Virus record (IMG/VR): IMGVR_UViG_3300035188_001315
Length of the DNA: 64,000 bases
Reading direction: 5' to 3' (one strand)
Source: a virus
Lineage: Duplodnaviria > Heunggongvirae > Uroviricota > Caudoviricetes
Within the stretch, counting starts at the first letter, position 1. The number at the start of each line of letters is the position of its first letter. Below, piece after piece: positions 6,485-62,471 of the stretch. The position numbers and the translations under genes are program-made. Under the pieces are notes generated by a model. The model saw only the letters and a program-made list of their open reading frames with translations. It ran no database searches and was not told where the DNA came from.

Positions 6485-6486
6485 AA

Positions 6487-35764: not shown

Positions 35765-35862
35765 ATTTCTTTAAACCAATCAAATGTTAAAAGTAGTGGT
35801 TGGTTTCTTAAAATTAACCACTACAAAAAACAAAATTACAAATTAAATTAAGGATACCAACA

Positions 35863-36129: not shown

Positions 36130-36183
36130 ATTACTTTATTTTGGTATAATAACAAAAAACTAAAATAACTTAAACAGGATTAA

Positions 36184-36462
36184 ATGATGAGTACTGAAAC
36201 TGAAAAACCAATTCCCGAAAATAAAACCATTGGTAAACAAGTAACAGCTGCATTTGAAAATAAACAAATCGATGTATCTGATTTGAATACTATTTGCACT
36301 GCCAGTGGTTTATCTATGGATAAAGTGATTGAACTTTCAGAATTAGCGACTAATGGTGAATACAAACGTGTGGGTAAACGTATTACTTGTTTTATTGATG
36401 AGGGTGAATTGGTGAATTGGGTGTTTTATTTACAATTCCAACAATCGTTACCAAAGAGTTAA
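36184..36462 (+). CDS. paralogue 3 of tandem family
   Basis: Same conserved pattern. Confidence 0.5.
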   Translation: MMSTETEKPIPENKTIGKQVTAAFENKQIDVSDLNTICTASGLSMDKVIELSELATNGEYKRVGKRITCFIDEGELVNWVFYLQFQQSLPKS

Positions 36463-48018: not shown

Positions 48019-48252
48019 ATGCCACTTAACATTCACAAAGAACACTTTCAAGGTTTGGTTAACAAGAATAAAGATCTTAGACAAACATTACAGGCTGCAG
48101 CCAAAGCTAAGATAAATGGTGATTGGTGTATTATTGAAGCAGTACCATTTGATGAAGAAATGGTCTATTGCTACAATGAAGAAACTCACGTTCAATACGC
48201 AATTCGATTTAGAGATATTGACTTTGGTAATCTCAAAACAATTTTGAAATAA
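48019..48252 (+). CDS. small protein, paralogue of 53503-53745
   Basis: Shares IIEAVPFDE-M-YCY-E ... QY-I-F block. Confidence 0.45.
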   Translation: MPLNIHKEHFQGLVNKNKDLRQTLQAAAKAKINGDWCIIEAVPFDEEMVYCYNEETHVQYAIRFRDIDFGNLKTILK

Positions 48253-49253: not shown

Positions 49254-49380
49254 TCTAATAACACACGGTGATGAAAATGCAAACTTTTTGAGTGTGTATT
49301 AAAAAATTGTTAAAAAAGTGCTTGACAAACTTGCCAAAGTAAAGTATAATAATTCATACTTAATTAAACGGAGAAAAAAA

Positions 49381-49587
49381 ATGATAGACGCAACTGGTAA
49401 AGAATTACAAATTGGTGATAAGGTTGTAACTAATCAGAATGATATTCGATTAGTTGTTGGTATTGTTGAAAGTTTCACTGAAGGTTTTACTGCACAGAAA
49501 GTCAAAATTAGATTAACATCCATATCAGGTGAGTATAGCGATTATACCTGTTTAAAATTCCCTGATCAATGTGCAAAAGTAGATTAA
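49381..49587 (+). CDS. hypothetical protein (68 aa)
   Basis: First gene carrying the conserved promoter/leader cassette (aaaaagtgcTTGACA ... TATAAT ... catacttaat ... cGGAGA ... ATG). Confidence 0.45.
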   Translation: MIDATGKELQIGDKVVTNQNDIRLVVGIVESFTEGFTAQKVKIRLTSISGEYSDYTCLKFPDQCAKVD

Positions 49588-49632
49588 AAAAGTGCTTGCT
49601 TTGTTCAAGCGGATAAGGTATAATGAATCATA

Positions 49633-49792
49633 ATTAAATTAAACGCTTTCAGGACGGCTTTGCTGGTGACCGAATCCAGCTTAACGATAGTTTGGCGAGT
49701 AGGGTGGTTCCTATGGTCTGGACTAATCGGGATACCATACTGCTGACCACAGTTACTGGCGAAAACCCAGTGCCGTCCTGAAAGCGTTTCTA
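49633..49792 (+). ncRNA. GC-rich structured leader RNA closed by a 15-bp perfect stem
   Basis: cgctttcaggacggc at 49636-49650 pairs with gccgtcctgaaagcg at 49775-49789. The ~120 nt between are about 50 percent GC with internal hairpins (GCUGG ... CCAGC, UAUGGU ... ACCAUA). Transcribed from the TATAAT at about 49617. Confidence 0.45.
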
Positions 49793-49808
49793 CAATAGCG
49801 GAGGGAAA

Positions 49809-49964
49809 ATGAATAATGAATTGCGACAAGATGTACTTAGATTAAAAGACGAGTTGTCTAAACGAGCATTTGATGAAAATCAAGAAGTCAAAAATAGCGA
49901 TTTGGCTGAGGTGGTTTGGAAATTAAATAGTTGCCTTGGCCAAGGCTATCCTAGAAAAAAATAA
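49809..49964 (+). CDS. hypothetical protein (51 aa)
   Basis: Short ORF with GGAGGGAAA RBS immediately after the structured leader. Confidence 0.35.
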   Translation: MNNELRQDVLRLKDELSKRAFDENQEVKNSDLAEVVWKLNSCLGQGYPRKK

Positions 49965-49977
49965 TAGCGGCCGGGAA

Positions 49978-50190
49978 ATGAATATAAAAAATAAATTTAT
50001 CGAGAATACATTTTTGTTTATTGTGATACATTTGTATTGTTTAATTGCTATGCCTTGGCATATCTATCAAATAAAACAGCGAGATAAACAAAACCAAAAA
50101 TCACAAATTACAAAAGAAATGATGGATAAAAAAATTCAAGATTTAAATAAATTTTACGGTAAAAAGTGCTTGACAAACTCGACAAAGTAA
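49978..50190 (+). CDS. small membrane protein
   Basis: TM helix; 3 prime end runs into next promoter. Confidence 0.3.
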   Translation: MNIKNKFIENTFLFIVIHLYCLIAMPWHIYQIKQRDKQNQKSQITKEMMDKKIQDLNKFYGKKCLTNSTK

Positions 50191-50224
50191 AGTATAATGA
50201 ATCATAATTAAAGAGGAGAGGAAA

Positions 50225-50482
50225 ATGGCTAGAGAAACCACTCAACAATATATCGATAGATATTGGAGAAAAGTGTTTAATAAATCTACAACTAAAGATA
50301 GATTAATTGAAATGGGATTAAAAATTGATCAACATGAGTTCAACCTACAAAGACTTAACAGTCGTGTTAAGTCACTGGTAACTGTTTTAGATGATGTAGG
50401 TAAATTACTCGAAGAACAAATGTCTTTGTTAAATAAAGCCGAGACTCATATAGATAATGCAATAAAAATTTTACAGGAATGA
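50225..50482 (+). CDS. hypothetical coiled-coil protein (85 aa)
   Basis: ORF after cassette promoter at about 50170, RBS GAGGAGAGG. Confidence 0.45.
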   Translation: MARETTQQYIDRYWRKVFNKSTTKDRLIEMGLKIDQHEFNLQRLNSRVKSLVTVLDDVGKLLEEQMSLLNKAETHIDNAIKILQE

Positions 50483-50596
50483 TGGTTTTATCAGTGGTAA
50501 TGTGGATGATGAATTTTGGTGCGGTCATGAATCTGGAGAGATTCAATTGGTGAGTGATGTGCTAAGTGAACGTGGTATTACCTGATGGGAGGAATA

Positions 50597-50827
50597 ATGT
50601 CCGAAACAGCGTTTCTAATATGTTGGATGATTGTAGGTTTAGTAATTGTAGACTTAATATTTCAGTATCTAGATAATGTGAATGACCTAATTAAAAAACG
50701 ATGGTTGAGAATCACTATAAAAAGTATTGGATTAGTAGCCTGGCCATTTTATCTTATGCTAATAGGTGTAGGTGTGGCAATTACGTTCATCTTAGAAAGT
50801 GATATTTTTAAAAGATTCTTTGAATAA
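50597..50827 (+). CDS. small membrane protein
   Basis: Two TM helices; GGGAGG RBS. Confidence 0.45.
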   Translation: MSETAFLICWMIVGLVIVDLIFQYLDNVNDLIKKRWLRITIKSIGLVAWPFYLMLIGVGVAITFILESDIFKRFFE

Positions 50828-50901
50828 ACTTTTAAAAACTCTTGTCATTCAATGTTGGTTGTAATATAATAATTCTTATTTAATAACATCGGAGATAAAA
50901 A

Positions 50902-51036
50902 ATGAAAGATTTTCAAACAGAAATTCATTTGATGTTCACTGTTGGTGGATGCACAATGGCACAGATTGCCGCCTCACAAGGTTTAACCCTAGATGAAGTG
51001 GAAAACATTATTAAATTCATGTCATCATTGGGTTAA
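50902..51036 (+). CDS. hypothetical protein (44 aa)
   Basis: Short ORF after cassette-type promoter at about 50838 with cGGAGAtaaaaaATG leader. Confidence 0.3.
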   Translation: MKDFQTEIHLMFTVGGCTMAQIAASQGLTLDEVENIIKFMSSLG

Positions 51037-51038
51037 GT

Positions 51039-51182
51039 ATGAATTTCACCCAGGCAGAAATAGATCTAATTAAATCGGCTATACAATATACTATGGAGCA
51101 TGGGTATGTATGGCGAGATGAAGAAGAAGAACGAGAATACCAAAATTTTAAAAAACTGTTAGATAAATTGAACACCAATTAA
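51039..51182 (+). CDS. hypothetical protein (47 aa), paralogue of 53286-53438
   Basis: Both share a conserved ML(E/M)xGY aromatic core and a C-terminal YQxxxxLLD block. Confidence 0.3.
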   Translation: MNFTQAEIDLIKSAIQYTMEHGYVWRDEEEEREYQNFKKLLDKLNTN

Positions 51183-51201
51183 ATAGTGTGGGGAAATTAA
51201 A

Positions 51202-51408
51202 ATGGGCATTAAAGTTAAACAAGCACCTAACATTCCAGCTATCAAACATTGTTCAGAATGTGGTTCAGAGGCTCATTTAGTAGACTGGTATTTTCGTGGT
51301 ATGTGGGCGGTAATGTGTGATTACTGTCATAACAGTAATTCAGAATGTATTAGTAAGCATCGGGCAGTGTCTCGATGGAATAGAAAACAAGAAATGGAAA
51401 TGACTTAA
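51202..51408 (+). CDS. zinc-ribbon protein, Lar-like (possible restriction alleviation)
   Basis: IKHCSECGSEAHLVD ... AVMCDYCH: CxxC ... CxxC/H arrangement as in Lar-family small proteins. Confidence 0.35.
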   Translation: MGIKVKQAPNIPAIKHCSECGSEAHLVDWYFRGMWAVMCDYCHNSNSECISKHRAVSRWNRKQEMEMT

Positions 51409-51477
51409 TATTCTTTAAATCCGGTTTAATGATTCGTACCTAATAAATAATATTGATTTTAAAATAGGTGAGGAAAT

Positions 51478-51729
51478 ATGAAAACATTTAAACAACTTAA
51501 AGAAGACTTCGAAATGATTGAACTGCAGGAATCTGGAGATATTACCGATGAGATTAAAGATGGTAAAGATCGTCGGGCAGCAAAAGGATTGTTGAACATG
51601 CATAACGATGAACTTAAAAAAAGTAGAATGGCAAAGAGCCCTACTAAAAAATCTCACCATGCAGATATGGCCGATCAGCATTTACAAGGGGTACATGATA
51701 TTCTACGAAAGCACAACCTGATTGATTAA
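51478..51729 (+). CDS. hypothetical protein (83 aa)
   Basis: ORF with GGTGAGGAAAT RBS; terminator at 51733-51760. Confidence 0.45.
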   Translation: MKTFKQLKEDFEMIELQESGDITDEIKDGKDRRAAKGLLNMHNDELKKSRMAKSPTKKSHHADMADQHLQGVHDILRKHNLID

Positions 51730-51844
51730 TTTAAAAGGGGTATTAAATATCCCTTTTTTTATGTCTTTTTTTTTAAAAAACTCTTGACATTAGTTGCCCG
51801 GTAAGGTATAATGATTCATACTTAATGAATTGGAGATAAAAAAA

Positions 51845-51931
51845 ATGAATGAAGCAGCATTGGAAAGAATGTTTGAATATGTGGTAGCTGGTACGGCGGT
51901 ATTCATTGTGGTAACAATACTCGGTATGTAA
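51845..51931 (+). CDS. 28-aa transmembrane peptide (family member 1)
   Basis: MNEAALERMFEYVVAGTAVFIVVTILGM directly after a cassette promoter/leader; paralogue at 57166. Confidence 0.35.
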   Translation: MNEAALERMFEYVVAGTAVFIVVTILGM

Positions 51932-51986
51932 AAGTTTCAATCAAAAATAAATCGGCACACTATCTTAATAAATTGGAGAAGCAAAA

Positions 51987-52244
51987 ATGATCAAATATAA
52001 AACTATAAAAAATTATGTAATCACAGAATTTGACAGAGAAGTTTCAAAACACCTAAATGATGGATGGCAAATAACCGGTGGTATTTCGGTCACTGTAAAT
52101 CTAAGTAATGAAGCTTTGTATTTCGTGGGCATGACTAAAACCGAAGTAGAAGAAAAAGAAACTAACCAAACTGTGTCACCTATTACCACACAACAACGTG
52201 ATACGATGTTGGCTGGAATAACCACTAATCGTAGATACCTATAA
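51987..52244 (+). CDS. DUF1737-like small phage protein
   Basis: MIKYKTIKNY ... EFDREVSKHLNDGWQITGG pattern; GGAGAAG RBS. Confidence 0.5.
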   Translation: MIKYKTIKNYVITEFDREVSKHLNDGWQITGGISVTVNLSNEALYFVGMTKTEVEEKETNQTVSPITTQQRDTMLAGITTNRRYL

Positions 52245-52266
52245 CAGTCCTCTATTGGTAAACAAA

Positions 52267-52458
52267 ATGAATAAAAAATTTAATTTTGATAACAAGCAAG
52301 AATGGTTAGATGCGGTGAAAGATCTGGGTTTAAAAATATATTACTGGGGAAATAACAGCATGGAAGTGTATGACGAAAATGATAGAGTAGCGGGTAGCTG
52401 GGTTGCTGAGTTTGATTGCAACAATGGTACTAGACCTTATGGTTGGTTGAGAAGTTAA
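52267..52458 (+). CDS. hypothetical protein
   Basis: ORF. Confidence 0.4.
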   Translation: MNKKFNFDNKQEWLDAVKDLGLKIYYWGNNSMEVYDENDRVAGSWVAEFDCNNGTRPYGWLRS

Positions 52459-52492
52459 AAAGCCCAATCAAACTTATTCTGGAGATAGAAAA

Positions 52493-52708
52493 ATGCAAGT
52501 AACTAAAAATACCACTTACCACATTAAATTTTGCGTTGTTAGTTTTGAAGGAACCGAAGGTGGGATGTGTGTCGATCATTTTGGTGATGAAGTAGATACA
52601 ATAGCAGAAGCTTTGGATTTGTTAGAAACTGCCAACGCTAAAGATTCCAGTGCTGATTGGAGAATCTGTTTAAATGTAGATAAAAAAATATCAAAAATAT
52701 CGGGTTAA
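52493..52708 (+). CDS. hypothetical protein (71 aa)
   Basis: ORF with GGAGATAG RBS. Confidence 0.45.
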   Translation: MQVTKNTTYHIKFCVVSFEGTEGGMCVDHFGDEVDTIAEALDLLETANAKDSSADWRICLNVDKKISKISG

Positions 52709-52742
52709 GCCCAACATCTTTATTTTTAAAAGAGGAAATTAT

Positions 52743-53057
52743 ATGGATGCTTTAAAAGCATTTGATGCAATCAAAAATGAATTTGGTGTACTAATCGCAT
52801 TGAGTGTTCTCCAAATCCACACTATTAATATGGTAACGAAAGTTAAAAAATCTGACATGGGTGCTAAATCAAATAGAACTGAAAGAGTTCTAAAGAAAGC
52901 AAAAAAATTGCTAAGTGGTATTTCGGATGACGAATACGAATTGGCATTGAAAGTGTGGTCAGTATTACATGACTGGGATGTGCGTCAAAATTTAAAAGGG
53001 CTTGGTGGTTGTGAAACCAAAACATTTTTAGAGTTGATAGTTAGTACCACACCATAG
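52743..53057 (+). CDS. hypothetical protein (104 aa)
   Basis: ORF with AGAGGAAA RBS. Confidence 0.45.
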   Translation: MDALKAFDAIKNEFGVLIALSVLQIHTINMVTKVKKSDMGAKSNRTERVLKKAKKLLSGISDDEYELALKVWSVLHDWDVRQNLKGLGGCETKTFLELIVSTTP

Positions 53058-53081
53058 TTGTACGACAGAGCAGGGGGTGAA

Positions 53082-53270
53082 ATGAAAAATCCAAATAAAA
53101 AAATGTTTGAAGTGAAATTTGAAAAATCAAACCATTTTTCAAAAAATGGGGTTGTTGCTTGTTATGATCACATTCAAGCATACGATGAAAAAGATGCTTT
53201 AATCATAGCAGTTTTAAAGCATGGTAACGGTATCACTATCACCCATGTATTAGAAGATGATAACGAATAA
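53082..53270 (+). CDS. hypothetical protein
   Basis: ORF with GGGGGTGAA RBS. Confidence 0.4.
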   Translation: MKNPNKKMFEVKFEKSNHFSKNGVVACYDHIQAYDEKDALIIAVLKHGNGITITHVLEDDNE

Positions 53271-53285
53271 AAGTTGGGTGTTGGA

Positions 53286-53438
53286 ATGAGTGATGATTTC
53301 AATGCAGAGGAACTGGACCTATTGTTTATTGCTCTTTGTCACATGCTCGAAACAGGTTATCCAGTACAGAGAGCTTCCGAGATTGAAACAGAATACCAAA
53401 AAATGTTAGATTTACTGGTAAAAGTATTTGACAAATGA
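53286..53438 (+). CDS. hypothetical protein (50 aa)
   Basis: Short ORF, paralogue of 51039-51182. Confidence 0.3.
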   Translation: MSDDFNAEELDLLFIALCHMLETGYPVQRASEIETEYQKMLDLLVKVFDK

Positions 53439-53502
53439 CTTTTGATTTGCTATAATAACCCATAGTTGAAAAAACCAGTTTAATTTTTTGGAGAATAACA
53501 AA

Positions 53503-53745
53503 ATGAATACTTTACACCATAACCACTTTGTTAATTTAGTAAAGGAAGGCAAAGATCTTAGAACGTTGTTAAAAGAAAGTAAAAAAATTAAAATGGAATC
53601 CGATGTAAATTGGTTAATCATTGAGGCAGTTCCCTTTGATGAAGATATGTTGTATTGTTATGATGAAGTAACCTTTGAACAATATGTAATCCCATTTAAA
53701 TACATCAATAAAAACACAACAGAATTTGCTACCATCGGTCAATAA
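53503..53745 (+). CDS. small protein, paralogue of 48019-48252
   Basis: Shared LIIEAVPFDEDMLYCYDE block; GGAGAATAAC RBS. Confidence 0.45.
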   Translation: MNTLHHNHFVNLVKEGKDLRTLLKESKKIKMESDVNWLIIEAVPFDEDMLYCYDEVTFEQYVIPFKYINKNTTEFATIGQ

Positions 53746-53773
53746 AATCACACAATTAAACGGAGAAAATAAA

Positions 53774-53920
53774 ATGAATATTACTCAAATGTACGAAAGT
53801 TTAATCGCTGGTGAAACCACTTTGGATCAGTTTGAAATCTGGATCTGGGAACGTGAAAATATGGCTTCATATTACACGTCTTGTGCTTTACATGAACAAA
53901 CAAATGAATTGGAAGAATAG
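53774..53920 (+). CDS. hypothetical protein
   Basis: ORF with cGGAGAaaataaaATG. Confidence 0.35.
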   Translation: MNITQMYESLIAGETTLDQFEIWIWERENMASYYTSCALHEQTNELEE

Positions 53921-53977
53921 CTTGATTTTTGTTTTCTGATGTGTTACAATGAATCATAATTTAATAGGAGATCCAAA

Positions 53978-54064
53978 ATGAAAAATGTTATTGAGTGGTT
54001 ACAATTGGTGGTTATTGGTTTAGGTATGGCGGTTGTGTTTGCTGGTTGGTGGTTGGGTTATTAA
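53978..54064 (+). CDS. 28-aa transmembrane peptide
   Basis: MKNVIEWLQLVVIGLGMAVVFAGWWLGY after TTGATT-17-TACAAT promoter and AGGAGAT RBS. Confidence 0.3.
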   Translation: MKNVIEWLQLVVIGLGMAVVFAGWWLGY

Positions 54065-54110
54065 GAAGAAGCCTCCTAGGCAATCAATCTTAATTCTCGG
54101 AGAAATAAAA

Positions 54111-54341
54111 ATGAATAACGAAGAACTACAAGCAAAGTTTGATGTGTTTGAAGATGTGGTTAGAGAACACAGTAAGCGTGAAACGGTCGGTGAAGGTGAA
54201 GTTTGTTATCCCTTTCTTGCGGGTTACCTTCCCTCGTTCTACAGTAGTTTGCTCACAGACTTAGAACTAACTAATGAACAGATTAAAAAAGTTAATGCCC
54301 GAATTGATTACCACATAGATAAATTAGTACAGATAAATTAA
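54111..54341 (+). CDS. hypothetical protein
   Basis: ORF with cGGAGAaataaaaATG. Confidence 0.4.
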   Translation: MNNEELQAKFDVFEDVVREHSKRETVGEGEVCYPFLAGYLPSFYSSLLTDLELTNEQIKKVNARIDYHIDKLVQIN

Positions 54342-54423
54342 TTCAATTATTCAAAAAAAGTTCTTGACATTGTATGGTTGATTAGGTATAATTACCCATA
54401 CTTAACAAAACGGAGAAGTAAAA

Positions 54424-54603
54424 ATGTTTAAATTAGTAATCACATTAATGTTTCACATTTCAACACCAGCTACAATCAGCACATTTGAGTACGATTCGTT
54501 AACAGACTGCTTGAAACACAGAGAAGAAAAAGTTCAAGTTCTTGATAAAATGAATCAAGAGTCAATCATCATTGGTTACAGTGCTGTTTGTGGTAAAGCG
54601 TAA
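54424..54603 (+). CDS. small secreted protein (59 aa)
   Basis: Cassette promoter at about 54364; hydrophobic N-terminus, two Cys; resembles 28652-28840. Confidence 0.35.
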   Translation: MFKLVITLMFHISTPATISTFEYDSLTDCLKHREEKVQVLDKMNQESIIIGYSAVCGKA

Positions 54604-54790
54604 TTTATTGATAAACAGGTGAAGGGAATGGTTGTTAATGAATTAATCGAAAAATTAAACCAAACCAAAAATAAAAATTTAGAAGTATTGATGGACCCCT
54701 TACAGAATCATAACTAGAAATCATAACTAAAAATCATAAGTAGGAGCATATTAATATGCTCCTTTTTTAACGACTGAGAGATCATTTACT

Positions 54791-55165
54791 ATGTTACAAT
54801 TATTCAAAACTCTACTTTCAAAACCATTATCTGCAAGTGAATTGCGAGAAAAAGCAGAAAAGGTAAAATCTAAAAATATGGTGATTGGTGCTAAAAAATT
54901 AATTGATTCAATTGATAACACCCTGATTGAAAGATCTGAACAAGGTGTTAAATCTGGAATCATTTCAGTTTATTCGTCGTTTAGTGGTTACATATTACAA
55001 GAAGGAAAATTGTGCACCCTAACGTATGTGGCGGCCGATGCTGACATTCTCAAAGTCGTAACTGCCAAATGTGTCGATGAATATCGTAGTCGGGGTTATG
55101 ATGTAACCGTTGACCGAGTTGAAAGAGAAGATGGAAAATTTCAAATCATCACTATAGCATGGTAA
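54791..55165 (+). CDS. hypothetical protein (124 aa)
   Basis: ORF after terminator hairpin at 54741-54768. Confidence 0.45.
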   Translation: MLQLFKTLLSKPLSASELREKAEKVKSKNMVIGAKKLIDSIDNTLIERSEQGVKSGIISVYSSFSGYILQEGKLCTLTYVAADADILKVVTAKCVDEYRSRGYDVTVDRVEREDGKFQIITIAW

Positions 55166-55178
55166 CGAGGTGATTAAA

Positions 55179-55577
55179 ATGGCGTATCGCTCTACCATTG
55201 CCATTGCGGTATACGGAAACAAAGGAAAATTAACCGAGTTAAAATCCTACTATTTGCGTGAAGTGGAAAAGTTAAATGATCCCGATGTGATCGATGATTT
55301 AAATACTATGATTAGTGCAAGCATCAACCATACAGGGAAACCTATTTGGGATGACGAATCCGGTGAATTTTTCTTCTACGCCACTAGGGTAATATGGTGG
55401 CCGAGGTATCCTACTGTTAGTTTATTTGATGGAATATTTGAGAAATCACAAGAGCTAGGATTGTATGCAGAATCGATTCGCATTGGAGATGAATTAAAAG
55501 ATATTGAGGTACATTATGCTGATGGTGATGCCGAATGTGAGCGTCGTTTAAAAGTGTCTAGAGCAATTTTATTTTAG
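55179..55577 (+). CDS. hypothetical protein
   Basis: ORF with GAGGTGAT RBS. Confidence 0.45.
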   Translation: MAYRSTIAIAVYGNKGKLTELKSYYLREVEKLNDPDVIDDLNTMISASINHTGKPIWDDESGEFFFYATRVIWWPRYPTVSLFDGIFEKSQELGLYAESIRIGDELKDIEVHYADGDAECERRLKVSRAILF

Positions 55578-55585
55578 CAGAAGAC

Positions 55586-55646
55586 TTGACATTTAACATC
55601 AAGTCAATTATAATAGCTCATACTTAATAAATTGGAGATACAGAAA
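55586..55646 (+). promoter_or_regulatory. promoter/leader cassette (representative of at least 12 copies)
   Basis: TTGACA (55586) - 17 - TATAAT (55609), then conserved leader agctcatacttaataaattggagatacagaaaATG. Near-identical copies at about 55918, 57600, 58182, 58914; related copies at 49321, 50170, 51784, 54364, 57095, 59866. Confidence 0.6.
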
Positions 55647-55910
55647 ATGAAAAAATTAATGGTTGCTTTGGTATTGATGGTAATCACTGGAGTGGTTGAA
55701 GCAAAAGGGTCTGCCGGTGCTGCGGGTCATGGTGGTGGTCATGCAGCATCAATCGTACATGTAGTTAGTGCGGGTCATGTAGTTACTTATGGGTCTGCCA
55801 ATAACCAATCCAATACAAATACCGGTGAATTAAAAGAGATGACAACAATCCAAAAGGTTCTTACTGGTGGAATTGTACTTTTATTTTTAGGTGCGTTTGT
55901 TAATCTTTAG
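55647..55910 (+). CDS. His-rich secreted C-terminally anchored mini-protein (family member 1)
   Basis: Signal peptide MKKLMVALVLMVITGVVEA, His-rich core GHGGGHAASIVHVVSAGHVV, C-terminal TM helix. Confidence 0.5.
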   Translation: MKKLMVALVLMVITGVVEAKGSAGAAGHGGGHAASIVHVVSAGHVVTYGSANNQSNTNTGELKEMTTIQKVLTGGIVLLFLGAFVNL

Positions 55911-55979
55911 ATCAGTACTTGACATTTAACATTAAAACAGTTATAATAAATCAAACTTAATAAATTGGAGATACAGAAA

Positions 55980-56150
55980 ATGATTAGAACTAAAGTGGAT
56001 AAATCAAAAGCCTGGTTCACAGGTGACAAAGTGTGGTTAGCACAAAATGATACTAAAACTAATCAAACCTACTTTGTTAGCAACACTGGTAACGAAATAA
56101 AAACAAGTGTACCGTGTAAAAATTATTCACAAAAACCATTTTCTTTTTAA
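55980..56150 (+). CDS. hypothetical protein
   Basis: ORF after cassette copy. Confidence 0.4.
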   Translation: MIRTKVDKSKAWFTGDKVWLAQNDTKTNQTYFVSNTGNEIKTSVPCKNYSQKPFSF

Positions 56151-56165
56151 ACCTCGGAGAAAAAA

Positions 56166-56411
56166 ATGAATATGACAGTTGCCGAGTTACTTGAAAAATT
56201 ATTAGCTAAAAATGTTTTGGTAACTTTTGAAAATGATATAGTAAATTATATTAACAATAAGTGTATTGTTAATGTCAATGGTAATATTATTAATGGGATT
56301 TTTCAATACGAAAATAAATCTATTTTCATTGAATTTGACGACCAGTCAGGTAATCAATATTATCCAGGGGAAATTGTTTCGGTTTATTTTTATCGACTAG
56401 AAGAATTATAA
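56166..56411 (+). CDS. hypothetical protein (81 aa)
   Basis: ORF with cGGAGAaaaaaATG. Confidence 0.4.
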   Translation: MNMTVAELLEKLLAKNVLVTFENDIVNYINNKCIVNVNGNIINGIFQYENKSIFIEFDDQSGNQYYPGEIVSVYFYRLEEL

Positions 56412-56489
56412 TTTTCGAGATAAGAAAGTGTTTGGCATTGTATGGTTGATTAGGTATAGTCCATCACACTATAAACCGGAGAAATGAAA

Positions 56490-56668
56490 ATGACTAATAA
56501 AATTAAATTTAAAACTATCATTAAATCTGACCATGACCATGTTTGACACCGAAGTCAACAGACACTTAAATGATGTGTGGAAATTACAGGGTAGCGTGGG
56601 CGTAGGAATTAACCCTTCTAATCGAAACTATTGCTATTCAATCGATGTTATTAAAGAGGTGGAGTAAG
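56490..56668 (+). pseudogene. frameshifted DUF1737-like paralogue
   Basis: MTNKIKFKTIIKSDHDHV-stop, then out of frame FDTEVNRHLNDVWKLQGSVG; both parts align to the 51987-52244 product. Upstream promoter degenerate (TTGGCA ... TATAGT). Confidence 0.45.
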
Positions 56669-56672
56669 CCTA

Positions 56673-56858
56673 ATGGAAAAGGATGATTTAATTGAACGTG
56701 CGGCACTAGCATTAGAAAAGGATAAAGTACGTCAATATGGTTGGTCTAAAAAAGAGTTCGAGATTTGGTGTTACTCTGATAATAGAGGAATAAAATCTTT
56801 TGCTGAGTCTAAAAAACAAGCAACAATTGTTTATGATATTATAAATGTGCTTACTTAA
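56673..56858 (+). CDS. hypothetical protein (61 aa)
   Basis: ORF. Confidence 0.4.
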   Translation: MEKDDLIERAALALEKDKVRQYGWSKKEFEIWCYSDNRGIKSFAESKKQATIVYDIINVLT

Positions 56859-56872
56859 TAACGGAGAACAAA

Positions 56873-57082
56873 ATGGCTTACACATACGCGGAATTTTGTC
56901 AATGGTTGGTATCGGGCGACAGCAACTCGCTAAGACAAGGACTCTACGTCAGTGTTGATGTTCGTAGAAATTTCTTACTAAAAGACCAAAATAAAATAAT
57001 TAGACACGGTGGCGTAATTAGTCCGGAATGGGAAAACATGGGCTCTGATGTTTATTTCGTAAAATTTGTTGGAAATGAATAA
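56873..57082 (+). CDS. hypothetical protein (69 aa)
   Basis: ORF with cGGAGAacaaaATG. Confidence 0.4.
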   Translation: MAYTYAEFCQWLVSGDSNSLRQGLYVSVDVRRNFLLKDQNKIIRHGGVISPEWENMGSDVYFVKFVGNE

Positions 57083-57165
57083 AAAAGTGCTTGACATTGT
57101 CGGAACACTAAGGTATAATGAATCATACTTAATTGAAAAGGCGTTAACGCCAAACGGAGAGAAAA

Positions 57166-57252
57166 ATGAATAACGAAATCCTAGAACAAGTGTTTGAATC
57201 TGTGTTAGCTGGAGCGTTTGTATTTATCGTTGTAACTGTTCTGAGCCTATAG
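57166..57252 (+). CDS. 28-aa transmembrane peptide (family member 2)
   Basis: MNNEILEQVFESVLAGAFVFIVVTVLSL after cassette promoter at about 57095. Confidence 0.35.
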   Translation: MNNEILEQVFESVLAGAFVFIVVTVLSL

Positions 57253-57262
57253 GAGAGACCTG

Positions 57263-57409
57263 ATGAAATATCAAGAATTTGTATTTGAAACTGCGTATGA
57301 TGCATGTGAGTTCGCCACAGAGTGTGGTGATAAATTCGTGAGATATAATGGTACCTCATGGAAAACTGAAGACGAAGGCGACTATGGCGTTGTGGTAGAA
57401 GGGGAATAA
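57263..57409 (+). CDS. hypothetical acidic protein (48 aa)
   Basis: Short ORF with GGAGAGACC RBS. Confidence 0.3.
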   Translation: MKYQEFVFETAYDACEFATECGDKFVRYNGTSWKTEDEGDYGVVVEGE

Positions 57410-57410
57410 T

Positions 57411-57605
57411 ATGCAAAGAGATTATTTAATCGATCGTATGAAACGCACGAATGCAAATGTTTTGAATTGCGTTGCTTGCTTACCGTTTTCTTTGGATTTA
57501 GACAAAGACCAACAAAAAATGATTGAAGAAATAGAATACATTTTGCTTCAGGCGTATGAACAAATTGATGATAAAATTGCTGAATATGCGTTAAAAAGTG
57601 CTTGA
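57411..57605 (+). CDS. hypothetical protein (64 aa)
   Basis: ORF; 3 prime end overlaps next cassette promoter. Confidence 0.35.
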   Translation: MQRDYLIDRMKRTNANVLNCVACLPFSLDLDKDQQKMIEEIEYILLQAYEQIDDKIAEYALKSA

Positions 57606-57662
57606 CAATCCATAACAGAACAATTATAATAGCTCATACTTAATAAATTGGAGATACAGAAA

Positions 57663-57920
57663 ATGAAAAAATTAATGGTTGCTTTGGTATTGATGGTAAT
57701 CACTGGAGTGGTTGAAGCAAAAGGGTCCACTGCTATTGCTCATGCCGGTATTGCCCATGCAACAGTTGCAAGTCATATGGTGGTTCATAATGTTAGTGGT
57801 CAAACCAATTCAACCACCACTGGTGAAAAATTATCAGATAAAGCTAGTACAACTATTACGGTTGCATTAATCTCACTTATTGCTATCGGGATAAGTGCTA
57901 TGGCTGGGTACAGTGAATAA
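57663..57920 (+). CDS. His-rich secreted C-terminally anchored mini-protein (family member 2)
   Basis: Identical signal peptide to member 1; core AIAHAGIAHATVASHMVVHNV; C-terminal TM. Confidence 0.5.
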   Translation: MKKLMVALVLMVITGVVEAKGSTAIAHAGIAHATVASHMVVHNVSGQTNSTTTGEKLSDKASTTITVALISLIAIGISAMAGYSE

Positions 57921-57975
57921 CAAAGTGTTTGACACTCTATAGTACATCAATCATAATAACTTCAGAGATAAAAAA

Positions 57976-58158
57976 ATGACTACATCCAAAACGAATGCTG
58001 AAAATAACTTGTCTGGTTTACGGGTTTTGATACACGACCGGTGCGAATGCTCTGTGCTAACCAAAGAACAAATCGAAGTATCCCCAGGTTACAGTTATTA
58101 TTGCCCACAATGTGATGAGGATCTATTTGCATTCGAAACTCAAACCGTGATAGTTTAA
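57976..58158 (+). CDS. small Cys protein (60 aa)
   Basis: CEC ... CPQC zinc-ribbon-like; promoter TTGACA-17-CATAAT upstream. Confidence 0.4.
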   Translation: MTTSKTNAENNLSGLRVLIHDRCECSVLTKEQIEVSPGYSYYCPQCDEDLFAFETQTVIV

Positions 58159-58239
58159 GCAGAAATAATCGAAAAAACACTTGACAATTACTGTGAGAAC
58201 AGTTACAATAGCTCATACTTAATAAATTGGAGAAGAAAA

Positions 58240-58650
58240 ATGTCAATTGAACAATCATTCTTAAGCAAATTCCCTAACGGCTATTTCTCGGTTTACCAAG
58301 CAGCGTTAGGTAATAATCATAATTTTGTTCGTTTGGGGTTAATCGGTAAAACTGAATTGTGCTCTAATAAAATCCGTGAAAACGATCCAATGCACACAGT
58401 GTTATCTATCCAACAATACGATGACCAAATTACAGTAAATTTAATCTCTGGGGGTTTATCACTTAACCCCGAAAAAGGTTCGTATTATGCTATGAACACA
58501 ATTAAATTACCATTTAGAAAATTCACAGTTAAAAACGAAAAAGAGTTATTAACCAAAATGGACAAATTTTTTGTCAAATTACGTTCGTTTGTTGATGAAC
58601 ACAAAGCAGAAATTTATCGTGTTGAACAGTACCCAGCTGGAATAATTTAA
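58240..58650 (+). CDS. hypothetical protein (136 aa)
   Basis: ORF after cassette copy. Confidence 0.5.
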   Translation: MSIEQSFLSKFPNGYFSVYQAALGNNHNFVRLGLIGKTELCSNKIRENDPMHTVLSIQQYDDQITVNLISGGLSLNPEKGSYYAMNTIKLPFRKFTVKNEKELLTKMDKFFVKLRSFVDEHKAEIYRVEQYPAGII

Positions 58651-58661
58651 GGAGAAAAAAT

Positions 58662-58901
58662 ATGACCACTGTAGCCCAACTAATCGAATACCTACAAACT
58701 CTGCCACAAGACGCAGAAGTTGATGTTCTAAAAGAAGTATCCGCAAATTGGTCAACCTGGACTGAATTTACTTCACTAGAGATTCCCGATAAATACGGTT
58801 GTTCAGATAACCTGGAAGTTTACGATTACCGAGACAACCAGTTTGTAAAAGAAGGTGACCCACGGTTCGGAAAAGTGTACGTATCTTTTGGTGAAAAATA
58901 A
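58662..58901 (+). CDS. hypothetical protein (79 aa)
   Basis: ORF with AGGAGAAAAAAT RBS. Confidence 0.45.
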   Translation: MTTVAQLIEYLQTLPQDAEVDVLKEVSANWSTWTEFTSLEIPDKYGCSDNLEVYDYRDNQFVKEGDPRFGKVYVSFGEK

Positions 58902-58972
58902 ATTTAAAAAACACTTGACATTCTATCAAAAATCAATTACAATAACTCATACTTAATAAATCGGAGAAGAAC

Positions 58973-59128
58973 ATGACTGTTAATGAATTAATCGAAAAAT
59001 TAAACCAAATCGAAAATAAGGATTTAGAAGTGGGCATGGATATTGGGGGTGCTAGTAGAGATATTGGTGAAATAGTAATGCTTGAATGTTCTGATGGTTC
59101 TACCTATGTAGAATTACAAATGGGTTAG
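58973..59128 (+). CDS. hypothetical protein (51 aa)
   Basis: After cassette copy. Truncated paralogue at 54628-54720 (MVVNELIEKLNQ ...). Confidence 0.35.
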   Translation: MTVNELIEKLNQIENKDLEVGMDIGGASRDIGEIVMLECSDGSTYVELQMG

Positions 59129-59160
59129 TTGAAAATTCCAAAAAAGCAGAGATCAATACA

Positions 59161-59301
59161 ATGAATGAAGAAACAATTGAAAAATTAAAAGTGTTAGCAG
59201 AAAGAAATTCATGGGAAGAGGATTTAACCATGAACCCCAATTTTGAGGTAGGCGAATCTTTACTAGCACAAGAAATTCTGTTTAACTTAGGGTTCAACTA
59301 A
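59161..59301 (+). CDS. hypothetical protein (46 aa)
   Basis: Short ORF. Confidence 0.25.
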   Translation: MNEETIEKLKVLAERNSWEEDLTMNPNFEVGESLLAQEILFNLGFN

Positions 59302-59303
59302 TA

Positions 59304-59471
59304 ATGAATAAAAATAGCAGTAGAATTGTTCACAGAGAATCCAACAAAGCAGATCAAAGATTGGGCATTACTTATTATACAGTCTGTGGCAAAACCAACC
59401 CCAATGTTTTAAAAGATTCAGACCCAGCTAAAGTCACCTGCAGACATTGTATGGTTGCACACACAGAATAA
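59304..59471 (+). CDS. small zinc-ribbon-like protein (55 aa)
   Basis: YYTVCGK ... VTCRHC. Confidence 0.3.
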   Translation: MNKNSSRIVHRESNKADQRLGITYYTVCGKTNPNVLKDSDPAKVTCRHCMVAHTE

Positions 59472-59491
59472 CAGAACGGAGAACATACCTA

Positions 59492-59848
59492 ATGACCACT
59501 ACATTCGACACACTTTCAAAAGAGTTAACCGATCCTTCCAAAGCCGAAGAAGCATTGGTTGCTATTATCAATCATTGCACAGAACGTAATCTTTCCTTTA
59601 CACGAATTTTAGAATTGGCAATTGAACGATCAGGGAATAAAGCAATCAAGAGTAACCCCAATGCCACAAACTTATTTAAGCTCGAAGGTGAACATATTGA
59701 AAGTGGCGAACCCTGGCAACCTTATGCTGATAAAATCTATACTACAAAAGAGCTAGCAGAATATCAAATGCAGCGTGAAATAATTGCCTATACCTACAAA
59801 GGTAAATGCGAATACGAATTTAAAATAAAAGAAATAACTATCAAATAA
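59492..59848 (+). CDS. hypothetical protein
   Basis: ORF with cGGAGAacatacctaATG. Confidence 0.45.
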   Translation: MTTTFDTLSKELTDPSKAEEALVAIINHCTERNLSFTRILELAIERSGNKAIKSNPNATNLFKLEGEHIESGEPWQPYADKIYTTKELAEYQMQREIIAYTYKGKCEYEFKIKEITIK

Positions 59849-59923
59849 ACCAAAAATAATGCTTGACATCTCTGAACACACTAAGTATAATTAGCCATAC
59901 TTAATGAAACGGAGATGTCAAAA

Positions 59924-60175
59924 ATGAAAAATGTATTATTGGTTCTGATGTTAATCTTAGCAAGTATGAATACAGTGTCTGCAAAAGGTGTTGCAGGTCA
60001 TGGTGTTGCTCATGCTACTGTTGTAGGTCACAGCACTAGTCATGGTAGTCCAACAAATCACTTTAGTCATGATAACAAGAAAGGTTTAACCAAGCAAGAA
60101 AGTGTTGCGGTGTTTATAACCTTTCTAATCGCCTCAGCATTTGGCATAACTGCCATTCGTTACTCAGACAAATAA
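59924..60175 (+). CDS. His-rich secreted C-terminally anchored mini-protein (family member 3)
   Basis: Signal peptide, core GVAGHGVAHATVVGHSTSHGSPTNHFSHD, C-terminal TM; after cassette promoter at about 59866. Confidence 0.5.
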   Translation: MKNVLLVLMLILASMNTVSAKGVAGHGVAHATVVGHSTSHGSPTNHFSHDNKKGLTKQESVAVFITFLIASAFGITAIRYSDK

Positions 60176-60191
60176 TCAAAAATAAATCGTA

Positions 60192-60216
60192 TAAAGGTGT
60201 TGACATCGACACCTTT
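60192..60216 (+). promoter_or_regulatory. palindromic operator overlapping -35 (copy 1)
   Basis: aaaggtgtTGACAtcgacaccttt, then tgaTACAAT and an 85-bp leader duplicated at 61238-61314. Confidence 0.55.
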
Positions 60217-60277
60217 ATTTGATACAATAGCTCATCAATTTAGAAATCCACTTAATTTAATCAAAAGGAAGGTACTT

Positions 60278-61207
60278 ATGTCAAATGCACAAATTCTCAC
60301 TTTGGTTTCATCAGACAGCCACACTGTTAATTTCACCGTTGGTACAGGTAAAGCGGTTTATTCTCGTACTGTTAATGCCGATGGTATTTTTTCTAAAAAA
60401 GGCTTTAGCTACCAAGTAACCGAAAATGGCATTGAATTGTTAGATGGTGACTATGTGAGCAATTCAGTAACAAGAACAGTGATGCCATTTAAACCCATTC
60501 AATCAGAATTTTCAATTAACCAACGATTCGATTTTTTAAATAAATTTACTAACATGGTATTAGATGGTGAAGTGGCATCCGAAGTTATCACTGGTGAAGG
60601 TGGTCTAGGTAAAACACACACCGTTTTAACTGCCATGACAAAACGGGGTTGGGTAGAAGGAACTCACTATGTCATCATTAAAGGTTTCTCTACACCTAAA
60701 GCACTCTATGCCACTCTCTATGAGAACAATGGTAAAGTAATCATTTTTGATGACTGTGACTCTGTATTGAAAGACCCTATTTCAGTAAACATTTTAAAAG
60801 GGGCATTAGATTCTTACGAAGTGAGAACAATTAGCTGGTTAACAAAAGGGTTTATTGAAGATGAGTACCCAGCATCTTTTGAATTCACTGGTCAAGTCAT
60901 TTTTATTTCAAACATTGGTTCGGATAGATTAGATGGGGCAATTAAATCTCGGTCAATTACAATCGATTTGAGCATGACTATCCAAGATAAAATTGAACGG
61001 ATGCAATTTATTTTACCCGAGATCCTACCTAACTACGCAATGGATGTTAAAGAAGCCGCATTGGAATTTATGGCATTTCATTCAGAAGAAGCAAGAGAAT
61101 TCAATTTGAGAACCTTAATGAAAGTTACGAAAGTGATTAACTCTTATGGATTAGAAAATTCTGACGAATGGTCACCCGCTGCAAAATACCTATTGTTGCA
61201 TGTGTAA
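60278..61207 (+). CDS. AAA-type P-loop ATPase with N-terminal unknown domain
   Basis: Walker A GEGGLGKTH, Walker B VIIFDDCD, downstream Arg-containing SRS block. Confidence 0.6.
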   Translation: MSNAQILTLVSSDSHTVNFTVGTGKAVYSRTVNADGIFSKKGFSYQVTENGIELLDGDYVSNSVTRTVMPFKPIQSEFSINQRFDFLNKFTNMVLDGEVASEVITGEGGLGKTHTVLTAMTKRGWVEGTHYVIIKGFSTPKALYATLYENNGKVIIFDDCDSVLKDPISVNILKGALDSYEVRTISWLTKGFIEDEYPASFEFTGQVIFISNIGSDRLDGAIKSRSITIDLSMTIQDKIERMQFILPEILPNYAMDVKEAALEFMAFHSEEAREFNLRTLMKVTKVINSYGLENSDEWSPAAKYLLLHV

Positions 61208-61237
61208 TTAATCAAAAATAATTGACATAAAGGTGTT

Positions 61238-61262
61238 GACACCAACACCTTTATTTGTTACA
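61238..61262 (+). promoter_or_regulatory. palindromic operator overlapping -35 (copy 2)
   Basis: aaaggtgtTGACAccaacaccttt plus the same leader as copy 1. Confidence 0.55.
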
Positions 61263-61314
61263 ATAGCTCATCAATTTAGAAATCCACTCAATTTAATCAA
61301 AAGGAAGGTACACT

Positions 61315-61503
61315 ATGTCATCAACTACTTTATACGTCGAACCAGCATTTTTTGAAAACTTTGACGGTGAAAAAAGTCCTTTCGACTACACCTTAACAGA
61401 CGTCGAAAAATTGTGTTTTACCTGCCCTTTGTTGGAGTGTAAGGAGAACTCTGTGAAATGCCCGATGAATATCGCACTCGCAGCGATGAAAAAAGGAAAA
61501 TAG
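61315..61503 (+). CDS. small Cys-containing protein (62 aa)
   Basis: CFTCPLLEC ... CPMN; AAGGAAGG RBS. Confidence 0.4.
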   Translation: MSSTTLYVEPAFFENFDGEKSPFDYTLTDVEKLCFTCPLLECKENSVKCPMNIALAAMKKGK

Positions 61504-61538
61504 TTCGCTTAGAGGCGCCTCTTTTCGATGAATTTTTT

Positions 61539-61567
61539 AAAAAACCCGCCCAAAAACGGGTTTTTTT
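61539..61567 (+). terminator. rho-independent terminator
   Basis: cccg-cccaaaaa-cggg followed by T7; ends the plus-strand array. Confidence 0.6.
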
Positions 61568-61892
61568 CCGTAAAAATGCCCACCAAACAAATTATTTACC
61601 GAAAAACGGCATAGCGAATTAAAATTTTTGTATAATAGTGACATGAAACCATTTTTTAAAAATATTCATTTAGTGGGCGAAATTAACCGTACTAGCAACT
61701 GAAAAATTGGGTTAAAAAATCGGTCGCACGGGGAAACGCTATATAAATAAGGGAAAATAGCCGAGTGTCAAAATTTTTTTACCAGATTTCGGGTTTAGAG
61801 ACGGCGGAAAAATTCTCGTTGTGCCATAAGACTTCAACCAAATTTTTTCGTGAAAAGTCCCAAAAATACCTCGAAAAATCATGAAAAGTCCT

Positions 61893-61996
61893 TCTAAAAG
61901 TTCTCCAAATTCATGCTAGTTTTCTTCTAAAAGTTCTCCAAATTCATGCTAGTTTTCTTCTAAAAGTTCTCCAAATTCATGCTAGTTTTCTTCTAA
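61893..61996. repeat. three tandem 34-bp repeats
   Basis: ttctaaaagttctccaaattcatgctagttttct x3 in noncoding DNA. Confidence 0.7.
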
Positions 61997-62059
61997 ATTT
62001 CCCCTAAATCTACTAACAGTTTCACTCTCAATATTCGGATAATTTACATGGTCACATTC

Positions 62060-62400
62060 ATCTCTTTCCCGTTATTTTTATGGTATTCTTCTGTATTTTT
62101 GCAGTCTTCCCAAACTGTTCCAAGCTGTATAATTTTCCAGACAATTTCCCTACCATTTCCCACACCATTCTACCGATAATTTTTCCTCTTTTAATTGCCC
62201 CGAAACAATTCCCCCAAACACTTCCCATTAATTTCGTCAACTTCCCACTTACACACCAAAAAAGCGGATTTATAACTTTTGTCCACTTGCTATATTTTAT
62301 TGGCATTTCCCTCCTTCCACTTTTCACTCAACTGCGGCATCGGATGACATTCCCAAATTTAATTCGCTATATTTTAAAGGAGTTTTAACATCCACAAATC
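62060..62400. other. pyrimidine-rich noncoding tract with about 12 TTCCC(A) motifs
   Basis: Strong C/T strand bias; motifs ttccca, tttccc, cttccc every 10-25 bp. Both predicted ORFs here are low-complexity and overlap each other. Confidence 0.5.
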
Positions 62401-62471
62401 ACTGCTCTACACTACACCATCTGAATTTTTACTACTTTATCATAAATATTTGGTAAAATACTAATAAACTC

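Follow-up and report, generated by a model that had tools for sequence, protein, structure and literature searches.

Promoter-early stem-loop (PeSL) elements combine, by definition, a promoter with a stem-loop (Arbiol et al. 2010, PMC2839356). Crossovers at these elements have been mapped to the AT-rich region or to the interval that separates the -10 box from the ATG (PMC2839356; Comeau et al. 2014, PMC4122927), and Arbiol et al. (PMC2839356) compared them with integrons. Another known system is the module of phage SPO1 described in 1998, which the passages of PMC6873191 that cite it present as a cluster of short operons holding a few dozen very small early genes, with strong host-type promoters and ribosome-binding sites. 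Here we analyse 64,000 nucleotides (the window) of the IMG/VR record IMGVR_UViG_3300035188_001315, a virus of the Caudoviricetes, in which a promoter/leader cassette recurs in front of small genes between about 49.3 and 60 kb. We conclude, with a probability of roughly 0.75, that these repeats are early promoter/leader cassettes for the host RNA polymerase, set in a hyperplastic region of orphan open reading frames (ORFans), and that they double as recombination patches.

A repeat search recovered families of 13, 8, and 11 copies of modules of 65, 78, and 37 nt between positions 49304 and 59927. The leader pattern CATACTTAATNAANYGGAGA, with at most two mismatches, occurs nine times against 0.01 expected, and none of 100 shuffles reaches this number. 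The promoter core TTGACA-N17-TATAAT, with at most one mismatch, has 43 sites in the window against 2.5 expected; the segment 49.3-59.9 kb holds 11 perfect sites and six more with one to three mismatches. Once weaker -35 boxes are included, judged by eye together with their flanks, there are 17 cassettes of a first class in this segment and two of a second class (Table 1), where the original prediction had counted at least 12 copies of the module. Class 1 is marked by an AAAGTGC box beside the -35 box, by a -10 box without TG extension, and by the CATACTTAAT leader. The TG-extended -10 box is found in one of 14 promoters in 49.3-59.9 kb versus 18 of 21 elsewhere. The supposed confinement of the promoter array to 49.3-60 kb holds for this class, which is specific to 49.3-59.9 kb, but not for consensus promoters in general, which are found along the + strand from 23218 to 61264. 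The array is 100% identical in at least five independent assemblies (ENA, JGI, and Logan, from different samples and pipelines), which we compared using exact-protein look-ups and which include a contig of 227,833 bp. They differ only in a single 33-bp tandem unit, which lies outside the array. The copies are thus not duplications made by an assembler.

We then described class 1 from a census in which the -10 box and the leader served as anchors, and which gave 131 unique cassettes in 15 loci: the window and 14 related metagenomic loci (L008, L014, L019, L035, and so on). Their consensus is taaaAAAGTGC-TTG(ACA/CTT/ATT)-N17-TATAAT-(g/a)A(a/c)T-CATACTTAAT-(0-25 nt)-cGGAGAGA-(4-7 nt)-ATG. Almost no variation is seen in AAGTGC, in the TTG of the -35 box, in TATAAT, or in CATACTTAAT. 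The 17-nt spacer varies overall, pairs of spacers having a median identity of 7/17. Most copies have an A-tract before AAAGTGC, and the TTGCTT promoter subtype is frequent in the relatives. In the cassettes, 5-9 nt separate the Shine-Dalgarno (SD) sequence GGAGA(G) from the ATG, and GGAG is found at most 18 nt from the start in 27 of 42 array genes. In Escherichia coli promoters, the consensus of the proximal UP-element subsite is AAAAAARNR, which AAAAAAGTG fits, and CAT is the preferred context of the transcription start. The proteins encoded behind the cassettes are only 40-80% identical between phages; the cassette is therefore under tighter selection than the genes. We read this conservation as functional, probably serving maximal early expression by the host RNA polymerase. 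A different reading of GTGCTTG, as the Mot box of a T4 middle promoter, was rejected: the motif contains TGCTT but ends 21 bp before TATAAT, which is the wrong spacing, MotA-dependent promoters carrying the TGCTT box about 12 bp upstream of the -10 box (definition in part from PMC4122927).

The relatives are not strictly syntenic. Gene order is scrambled in five of the related loci (L019, L028, L029, L032, and L035). In L019, the homologues of window genes follow each other as 58240, 53082, 45789, 55980, 57166 with 57263, 56673, 51987, and 59915. L029 has the genes of the 136-aa and 79-aa proteins swapped, possibly by circular permutation (a mini-circle), and L018/L019 show a tandem duplication. 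Blocks of DNA homology correspond to single genes, typically from the -10 box or the leader to the stop codon, and also include promoter-to-promoter modules. One such module, 49587-50166 (580 bp), recurs in another genomic context in L035 and L043, with 92-97% identity. Both ends of its homology are the A-tract/AAAGTGC 5' edge of a cassette, the position where Arbiol et al. placed PeSL crossovers. Among 50 block ends, 18 (36%) lie in cassettes and 25 (50%) at other gene boundaries, when chance would give 16% for each; seven (14%) fall inside coding sequence, versus 60% by chance. The 51-aa gene at 49809-49977 is missing from L035 and L043, and this indel is flanked by direct repeats of 21-22 nt, AATAGCGG(A/C)(G/C)GGAAA(A)TGAATA, which are SD/start regions.

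Promoter cores and genes reassort independently. Pairwise comparison of 117 unique cassette-gene units gave 109 cassette pairs in which at least 15 of the 17 spacer bases are alike and the downstream genes are unrelated, and 24 pairs with the same gene (some with identical N-termini) and unrelated spacers; only 19 pairs share both spacer and gene. Even one and the same gene can stand behind cassettes of different class, class 2 in the window (45789) and class 1 in L019. These mismatched pairs imply that exchange takes place at the conserved leader. Tracts of perfect identity complete the picture. Two paralogues encoding His-rich proteins share 107 bp that are 100% identical, beginning shortly upstream of the -10 box and ending where the signal peptide ends, between flanks of about 55% identity; this is therefore a gene-conversion or recombination tract. 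At 61270-61358, 89 bp (the leader plus 44 nt at the start of the coding sequence) are identical to a paralogous locus in L008 about 85 kb away. Beyond these 89 bp, the 62-aa gene at 61315 and its L008 paralogue are about 85% identical, and their promoter spacers are unrelated. The homology blocks, the reassortment of spacers and genes, and the tracts starting at the leader together uphold the PeSL-like shuffling that had been proposed for this region.

The paralogy noted earlier behind the cassettes was largely recovered by BLASTP: 48019/53503 (52% identity, E 3e-20), 51039/53286 (41%, E 7e-5), 54628/58973 (78%, E 4e-8, the first being truncated), the two DUF1737-like genes 51987/56533 (50%, E 1e-7, the second frameshifted), and the His-rich mini-proteins 55647/57663 (54%, E 1e-9), of which 59915 is a third and more distant member. 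The family of two to three 28-aa transmembrane peptides shrinks to one pair, 51845/57166 (57%, E 7e-7), as neither member is significantly similar to 53978. The frameshifted DUF1737-like gene follows a mutated promoter (C11, -35 box at 56432): promoter and gene have both decayed, which indicates that a unit freed from selection decays as a whole.

Stem-loops are rare in class 1. Only one of the 17 copies in the window has a stem-loop with p ≤ 0.01 against dinucleotide shuffles. In both class-2 cassettes, a strong stem-loop encloses the -35 box (AAAGGTG..CACCTTT, z -5.7, at 60200; z -5.2 at 61236). Copies with stem-loops are found in the relatives (three of six in L019, seven of 28 in L014, three of 14 in L011, and three of nine in L008). 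Those of L011 have the form GGGGC..GCCCC, as in RB49, and a recurrent form pairs AAGTGCTTG with CAAGCACTT in the spacer. The family thus has PeSL-type members, and the array of the window is its stem-loop-less form. Between units, the + strand has only two terminator-like hairpins (51733 and 54742). Transcripts probably run through from unit to unit as far as the hairpin and T-run at 61544-61569.

In the mechanism that we propose, each cassette would be a near-ideal host sigma70 promoter, made of the A-tract and AAAGTGC, TTGACA or TTGCTT, a 17-bp spacer, and TATAAT. Transcription would probably start at the A of CATACTTAAT, within the fixed start region, and give a short A/U-rich 5' leader with a strong GGAGA(G) ribosome-binding site. 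Each cassette would serve one to five very small ORFan genes, with almost no terminators between units. Stretches of near-identity of 30-110 bp, scattered through the region, would be the substrate for general homologous recombination, with the cassettes and the repeated leader/SD sequences as crossover points. The expected outcomes are duplications (the paralogue families), gene conversion, deletions, and pseudogenes, and promoter-gene modules could be exchanged between co-infecting relatives.

Several observations weigh against this double role. Promoter use and early timing are predictions from the consensus, 16 of the 17 class-1 cassettes in the window have no significant stem-loop, and terminator-like sites in 47-63 kb number eight when shuffles give 7.4. 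All contigs of the source phage are identical, and no cassette-junction variant was seen within the population. One locus that might have passed for direct proof of recombination, L010, joins window positions 59951-61255 to L008 9664-12025 like an inversion joint, but the junction lies inside the 89-bp exact repeat; L010 could be an assembly chimera and was not used as evidence. Promoters are absent from the gene boundaries at which half of the homology break-points fall, and cassettes are therefore one route of exchange and not the sole one. Finally, the likeness of the cassettes is largely explained by functional selection: their conservation across phages exceeds that of coding sequence, so that similarity alone is no proof of common descent or of a role in recombination. 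One could then regard the cassettes purely as a shared regulatory signal, and attribute the shuffling to illegitimate or microhomology recombination followed by selection at gene boundaries. This fits the consensus positions, which are those of known function (UP subsite, -35 and -10 boxes, start site, and SD), and the fact that most spacers differ. However, we know of no sequence requirement in promoter spacers, and the near-identical spacers found before unrelated genes in 109 pairs are thus not convergence. Moreover, the perfect tracts of 107 and 89 bp begin precisely at the -10 box or the leader, module ends coincide with the 5' edges of cassettes, and the indel is flanked by a leader repeat of 21-22 nt. 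We find it unlikely that the cassettes are only a signal.

The fixed elements could also have a more specific partner. The two nearly invariant boxes on either side of every promoter are AAAGTGCTTG, which is retained even in cassettes where TTGCTT makes up the remainder of the -35 box, and the transcribed CATACTTAAT. They might go beyond an optimal sigma70 signal and be recognition sites of a dedicated phage factor. This factor might be a regulator, or an RNA-level tag together with the uniform GGAGAG SD, that silences all early messages jointly, in the manner of RegB. Or it might be a recombination helper, in which case there would be true integron-like cassette exchange, common to a clade of methanotroph and freshwater jumbo phages. 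We think that such a factor is rather improbable. Still less credible is a host-takeover module placed in a long terminal repeat, in the style of SPO1 or of the T5 pre-early genes, with the repeats as its strong early promoters. The small genes with strong promoters and ribosome-binding sites recall SPO1 genes 37-60, as far as the cited passages of PMC6873191 describe them, one 228-kb contig stops about 1.4 kb past the array, and a non-coding stretch with 33-bp tandem repeats follows. Yet other contigs continue through this stretch into further genes, and the breaks fall at the tandem repeat, a typical place for assemblies to break. A second copy of the array was not found, consensus promoters span 38 kb, well beyond a plausible terminal repeat, and such a location would in any case be compatible with the evidence for shuffling. 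As for the copies being assembly duplications or chimeras, short metagenomic contigs can be chimeric at repeats, as L010 may exemplify; but base-for-base identity in at least five independent assemblies already refutes an artefact for the whole array, and the copies differ mutually and precede different genes. The chances of this are negligible. We therefore retain promoter cassettes that double as recombination patches, and list the features of the array in Table 1.

Table 1. Features of the array and its 3' border (all on the + strand); the genes driven by each cassette are predicted from sequence position.
Feature	Position	-35 start	Sequence	Genes driven (predicted) or remarks
C1	49304-49380	49322	UP-like AAAAAAGTGC, TTGACA, 17 nt, TATAAT, CATACTTAAT leader, GGAGA	49381-49587 (68 aa, matches phrog_2251)
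C2	49580-49640	49597	weak -35 TTGCTT	structured RNA 49641-49790, then 49809-49964, 49978-50190
Promoter-to-promoter module	49587-50166			homology with L035, L043
Structured RNA/5' leader	49641-49790		150 nt, 18-bp closing helix	
Single-gene indel	49809-49977			51-aa gene
C3	50152-50224	50170	spacer equal to that of C1 at 15/17, leader different	50225-50482
C4	50824-50901	50842	-35 TTGTCA	50902-51036, 51039-51182, 51202-51408, 51478-51729
Intrinsic terminator-like hairpin	51733-51757			just upstream of C5
C5	51766-51844	51784		28-aa membrane peptide 51845-51931 and downstream genes to ~53438
Leader relic without promoter	51955-51986			before DUF1737-like gene 51987-52244
C6	53410-53502	53428	TG-extended -10, atypical leader	53503-53745 (paralogue of 48019-48252)
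C7	53905-53977	53922	weak -35 TTGATT, TACAAT	28-aa membrane peptide 53978-54064; homologues in L028, L030, L035
C8	54346-54423	54364		54424-54603 and 54628-54717 (truncated copy of 58973 gene)
Intrinsic terminator-like hairpin	54742-54763			
C9	55568-55646	55586		His-rich secreted/membrane mini-protein 1 (55647-55910)
Identity tract, 107 bp	55605-55711			identical to 57621-57727
C10	55901-55979	55919		55980-56150, 56166-56411
C11, decaying unit	56414-56667	56432	boxes TTGGCA/TATAGT, spacer identical to C8	before frameshifted DUF1737-like pseudogene (56491-56544 and 56533-56667)
C12	57073-57165	57091	small GGCG..CGCC leader hairpin	28-aa peptide 57166-57252, then 57263-57409, 57411-57605
C13	57584-57662	57602		His-rich mini-protein 2 (57663-57920)
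C14	57911-57975	57929	-10 CATAAT, short leader	57976-58158
C15	58163-58239	58181		58240-58650 (136 aa), 58662-58901
C16	58897-58972	58915		58973-59128, 59161-59301, 59304-59471, 59492-59848
C17	59845-59914	59863		His-rich mini-protein 3 (59915-60175)
Class-2 cassette	60170-60277	60200	TG-extended TACAAT, leader CATCAATTTAGAAA..AAGGAAGGTAC	Cdc6-like AAA ATPase 60278-61207
Class-2 cassette	61206-61314	61236	92% identical to 60170-60275, leader CATCAATTTAGAAA..AAGGAAGGTAC	61315-61503
Terminator-like hairpin and T-run	61544-61569		CCCGCCCAAAAACGGG	end of + strand gene array, read off the sequence

Class-2 cassettes are much more numerous in one of the relatives. The first 12 kb of L014 (1-12000, 31% G+C) have 28 of them, about one per small gene, with the leader CATCAAATcAGAAAACA..AAAAGGTAGGT..AAATG. 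The layout of one cassette per gene is therefore a property of the whole phage group, which has at least two classes of cassettes. The Cdc6-like AAA ATPase behind the first class-2 cassette of the window is a lineage-specific duplicate, 81% identical to the copy at L008 10001-10930. The other copy sits in a conserved position beside HD_4, RNR, and Cpn10 genes in the source phage and its relatives (loci L008, L014, and L016). This ATPase family has more than 5000 members in metagenomes. Past the array, a gene-poor region of about 1 kb (61500-62470) contains a terminator-like hairpin, 33-bp repeats, and a pyrimidine-rich tract, and several assemblies break there; the 33-bp repeat has 3.2 perfect copies (61891-61997), with one copy fewer in the ENA contig.

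The array has about 45 genes in 13 kb. Only one of 50 array proteins has a Pfam match (DUF1737, E 1.3e-4), the other 49 being without Pfam family, and nine have matches in PHROGs, all of unknown function. Among these proteins are some with signal peptides, His-rich or transmembrane segments, the 28-aa membrane peptides, and Cys-rich mini-proteins, for which Pfam and PHROGs gave no informative matches. The AlphaFold2 model of the 136-aa protein has a mean confidence (pLDDT) of 91.5 and no fold match in the PDB (best E 0.047). By analogy with the early ORFans of T4 and with the SPO1 module, as presented in the relevant passages of PMC6873191, we infer that the small proteins may act in host takeover, defence evasion, or exclusion.

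One cassette precedes an RNA rather than a gene. Directly behind the C2 promoter, the 150-nt RNA at 49641-49790 (+) is G+C-rich, with internal hairpins within its 18-bp closing helix (minimum free energy -67.7 kcal/mol, z -5.0). Copies are found at L029 6323-6478(-), L035 3662-3817(-), L041 7422-7576(-), and L043 1385-1540(+). Across the five phage variants, it has four variable positions, too little variation for covariation, and is followed by three different genes. We found no match for it in Rfam or in bacterial genomes. It is a candidate for a new phage noncoding RNA or cis-regulatory leader.

The window has a G+C content of about 31% and encodes about 10 tRNAs, a transfer-messenger RNA (tmRNA), two group I introns, rIIB, Sir2, RNA ligases, a polynucleotide-kinase-like protein, and PmoC (PF04896, E 2.8e-112). 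The presence of PmoC places the source among the large freshwater, uncultured pmoC jumbo phages of Chen et al. 2020 (PMC7674155). In that study, the phage LM_4 has a genome of 353 kb with 32% G+C, 14 tRNAs, and Methylobacter as predicted host, and pmoC-phages are described no further than as myoviruses (PMC7674155). The host of the source phage is probably a gammaproteobacterial methanotroph, and the E. coli-like promoter consensus fits such a host. Possible signs of kinship with T4 are the rIIB homologue (34392-35222, +; phrog_609, E 5.7e-77), the RNA ligases, and the Cdc6-like ATPase, which has distant homologues (<40% identity) in 1304 phage records, most of them T4-like; the window contains none of the core structural or replication genes of T4. 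Three small paralogous genes (35402, 35863, and 36184) follow rIIB within 34392-36462 (+), and at least two of them resemble part of a protein of L016 annotated as rIIB. Against 50,697 phage records, neither a megablast of the region nor a tblastn search with a 685-aa protein gave a match, and scans of IMG/VR by the leader pattern and by two proteins returned nothing useful.

The pmoC gene itself (3258-4268, -) is split by a group I intron of 258 nt, with exon 1 at 4268-3611, the intron at 3610-3353, and exon 2 at 3352-3258. The predicted exon junction joins CATTATGGGT to TTGTATTTTTT, and the spliced PmoC of 250 aa aligns over residues 1-250 of 250 with subunit C of particulate methane monooxygenase (PDB 6cxh_C, E 8e-153). 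Chen et al. (PMC7674155) reported 'fragmented' pmoC in four pmoC-phages, with a weakly transcribed non-coding gap between the fragments; the word 'intron' is absent from their text. An intron in this position suggests that these 'fragmented' genes are intact after splicing.

Elsewhere in the window, a tRNA gene with anticodon UUG (ARAGORN; ~10007-10291, -), in the cluster of about 10 tRNA genes, has a 196-nt intron in the anticodon loop, which coincides with the second Rfam match to group I introns (10072-10266, 75.6 bits). The tmRNA (10567-10946, -; Rfam 124 bits, no call by ARAGORN) has a tag that reads, by eye from the alignment, ANDSYYQVAVAA, of the proteobacterial type. Just upstream of this tRNA/tmRNA cluster, a 72-bp unit is repeated 3.7 times in tandem (11174-11443, -), each with the promoter-like TTGATAAATGAAATTTTTTATTGTATAAT; these units may be stacked promoters for the RNA genes. 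A gene for a replication initiator of the Rep3 family (plasmid-type, iteron-binding) at 14838-16058 (+) is preceded by iteron-like direct repeats (85/107 nt at 14211-14484, 32 nt in 2.7 copies at 14649-14733, and 24 nt in two copies at 14745-14791), an origin-like layout in a jumbo phage. The window also encodes a PAS-HisKA-HATPase histidine kinase (6487-7653, -; region 5514-7653), and the Pfam survey found a response-regulator receiver domain among its proteins. A two-component system is unusual cargo for a phage.

These results extend to the large freshwater pmoC-carrying phages, a group of environmental importance, an idea drawn from cultured T4-type coliphages and vibriophages, namely that conserved cassettes with early promoters also serve as portable recombination sites, by which small accessory genes are shuffled. 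Nothing known is overturned: an evolutionary mechanism already known gains a clean new instance, and the 131 cassettes make an unusually clean data set. With the cassette consensus, early genes and the fast-evolving pool of host-interaction genes can be located in unannotated metagenomic phage contigs.

Among the known systems, the module of SPO1 has in common with the array a cluster of very small early genes behind strong promoters and ribosome-binding sites. The SPO1 genes are located in the terminal redundancy, several of their products have been demonstrated to shut off host processes, and the passages of PMC6873191 that describe the module do not give recombinational shuffling via promoters as one of its features. 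Integron cassettes are likewise promoter-associated arrays of small, exchangeable genes, mostly of unknown function, but here each unit carries its own promoter and there are no attC-type sites and no integrase, a family of which no member turned up among the scanned window proteins. Morons resemble the units in being extra genes with their own promoter inserted between others. The term, which the original prediction had used for this array, does not fit, since a moron has its own terminator, is expressed from the prophage, and lacks conserved bounding sequences. None of this applies here: there are two terminator-like hairpins for 17 units, and the window showed neither an integrase nor lysogeny genes.

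The likeness to PeSLs goes further. Both have a near-consensus sigma70 promoter with an AT-rich region upstream and, at the 3' end, an SD with the start codon, conserved over about 70-100 bp, and both are dense in hyperplastic regions with many small ORFans. In both, the elements form the borders of indels, replacements, and displacements that distinguish relatives, though here not at every break-point, and crossovers fall either within the AT-rich region or between -10 box and ATG. Even the -35 variants TTGYVH of the PeSLs of nt-1/KVP40 resemble the TTG(A/C)(C/T)(A/T) found here. The differences are that the source is an uncultured pmoC jumbo phage and not an established member of the T4 superfamily, that the CATACTTAAT leader and the AAAGTGC box are far more fixed than in any description of a PeSL, and that the stem-loop or terminator, present in both class-2 cassettes and in 25-50% of the copies of the relatives, is lacking in 16 of the 17 class-1 copies. 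With this half of the element missing, the array is PeSL-like rather than PeSL in the strict sense: a variant that works like a PeSL array.

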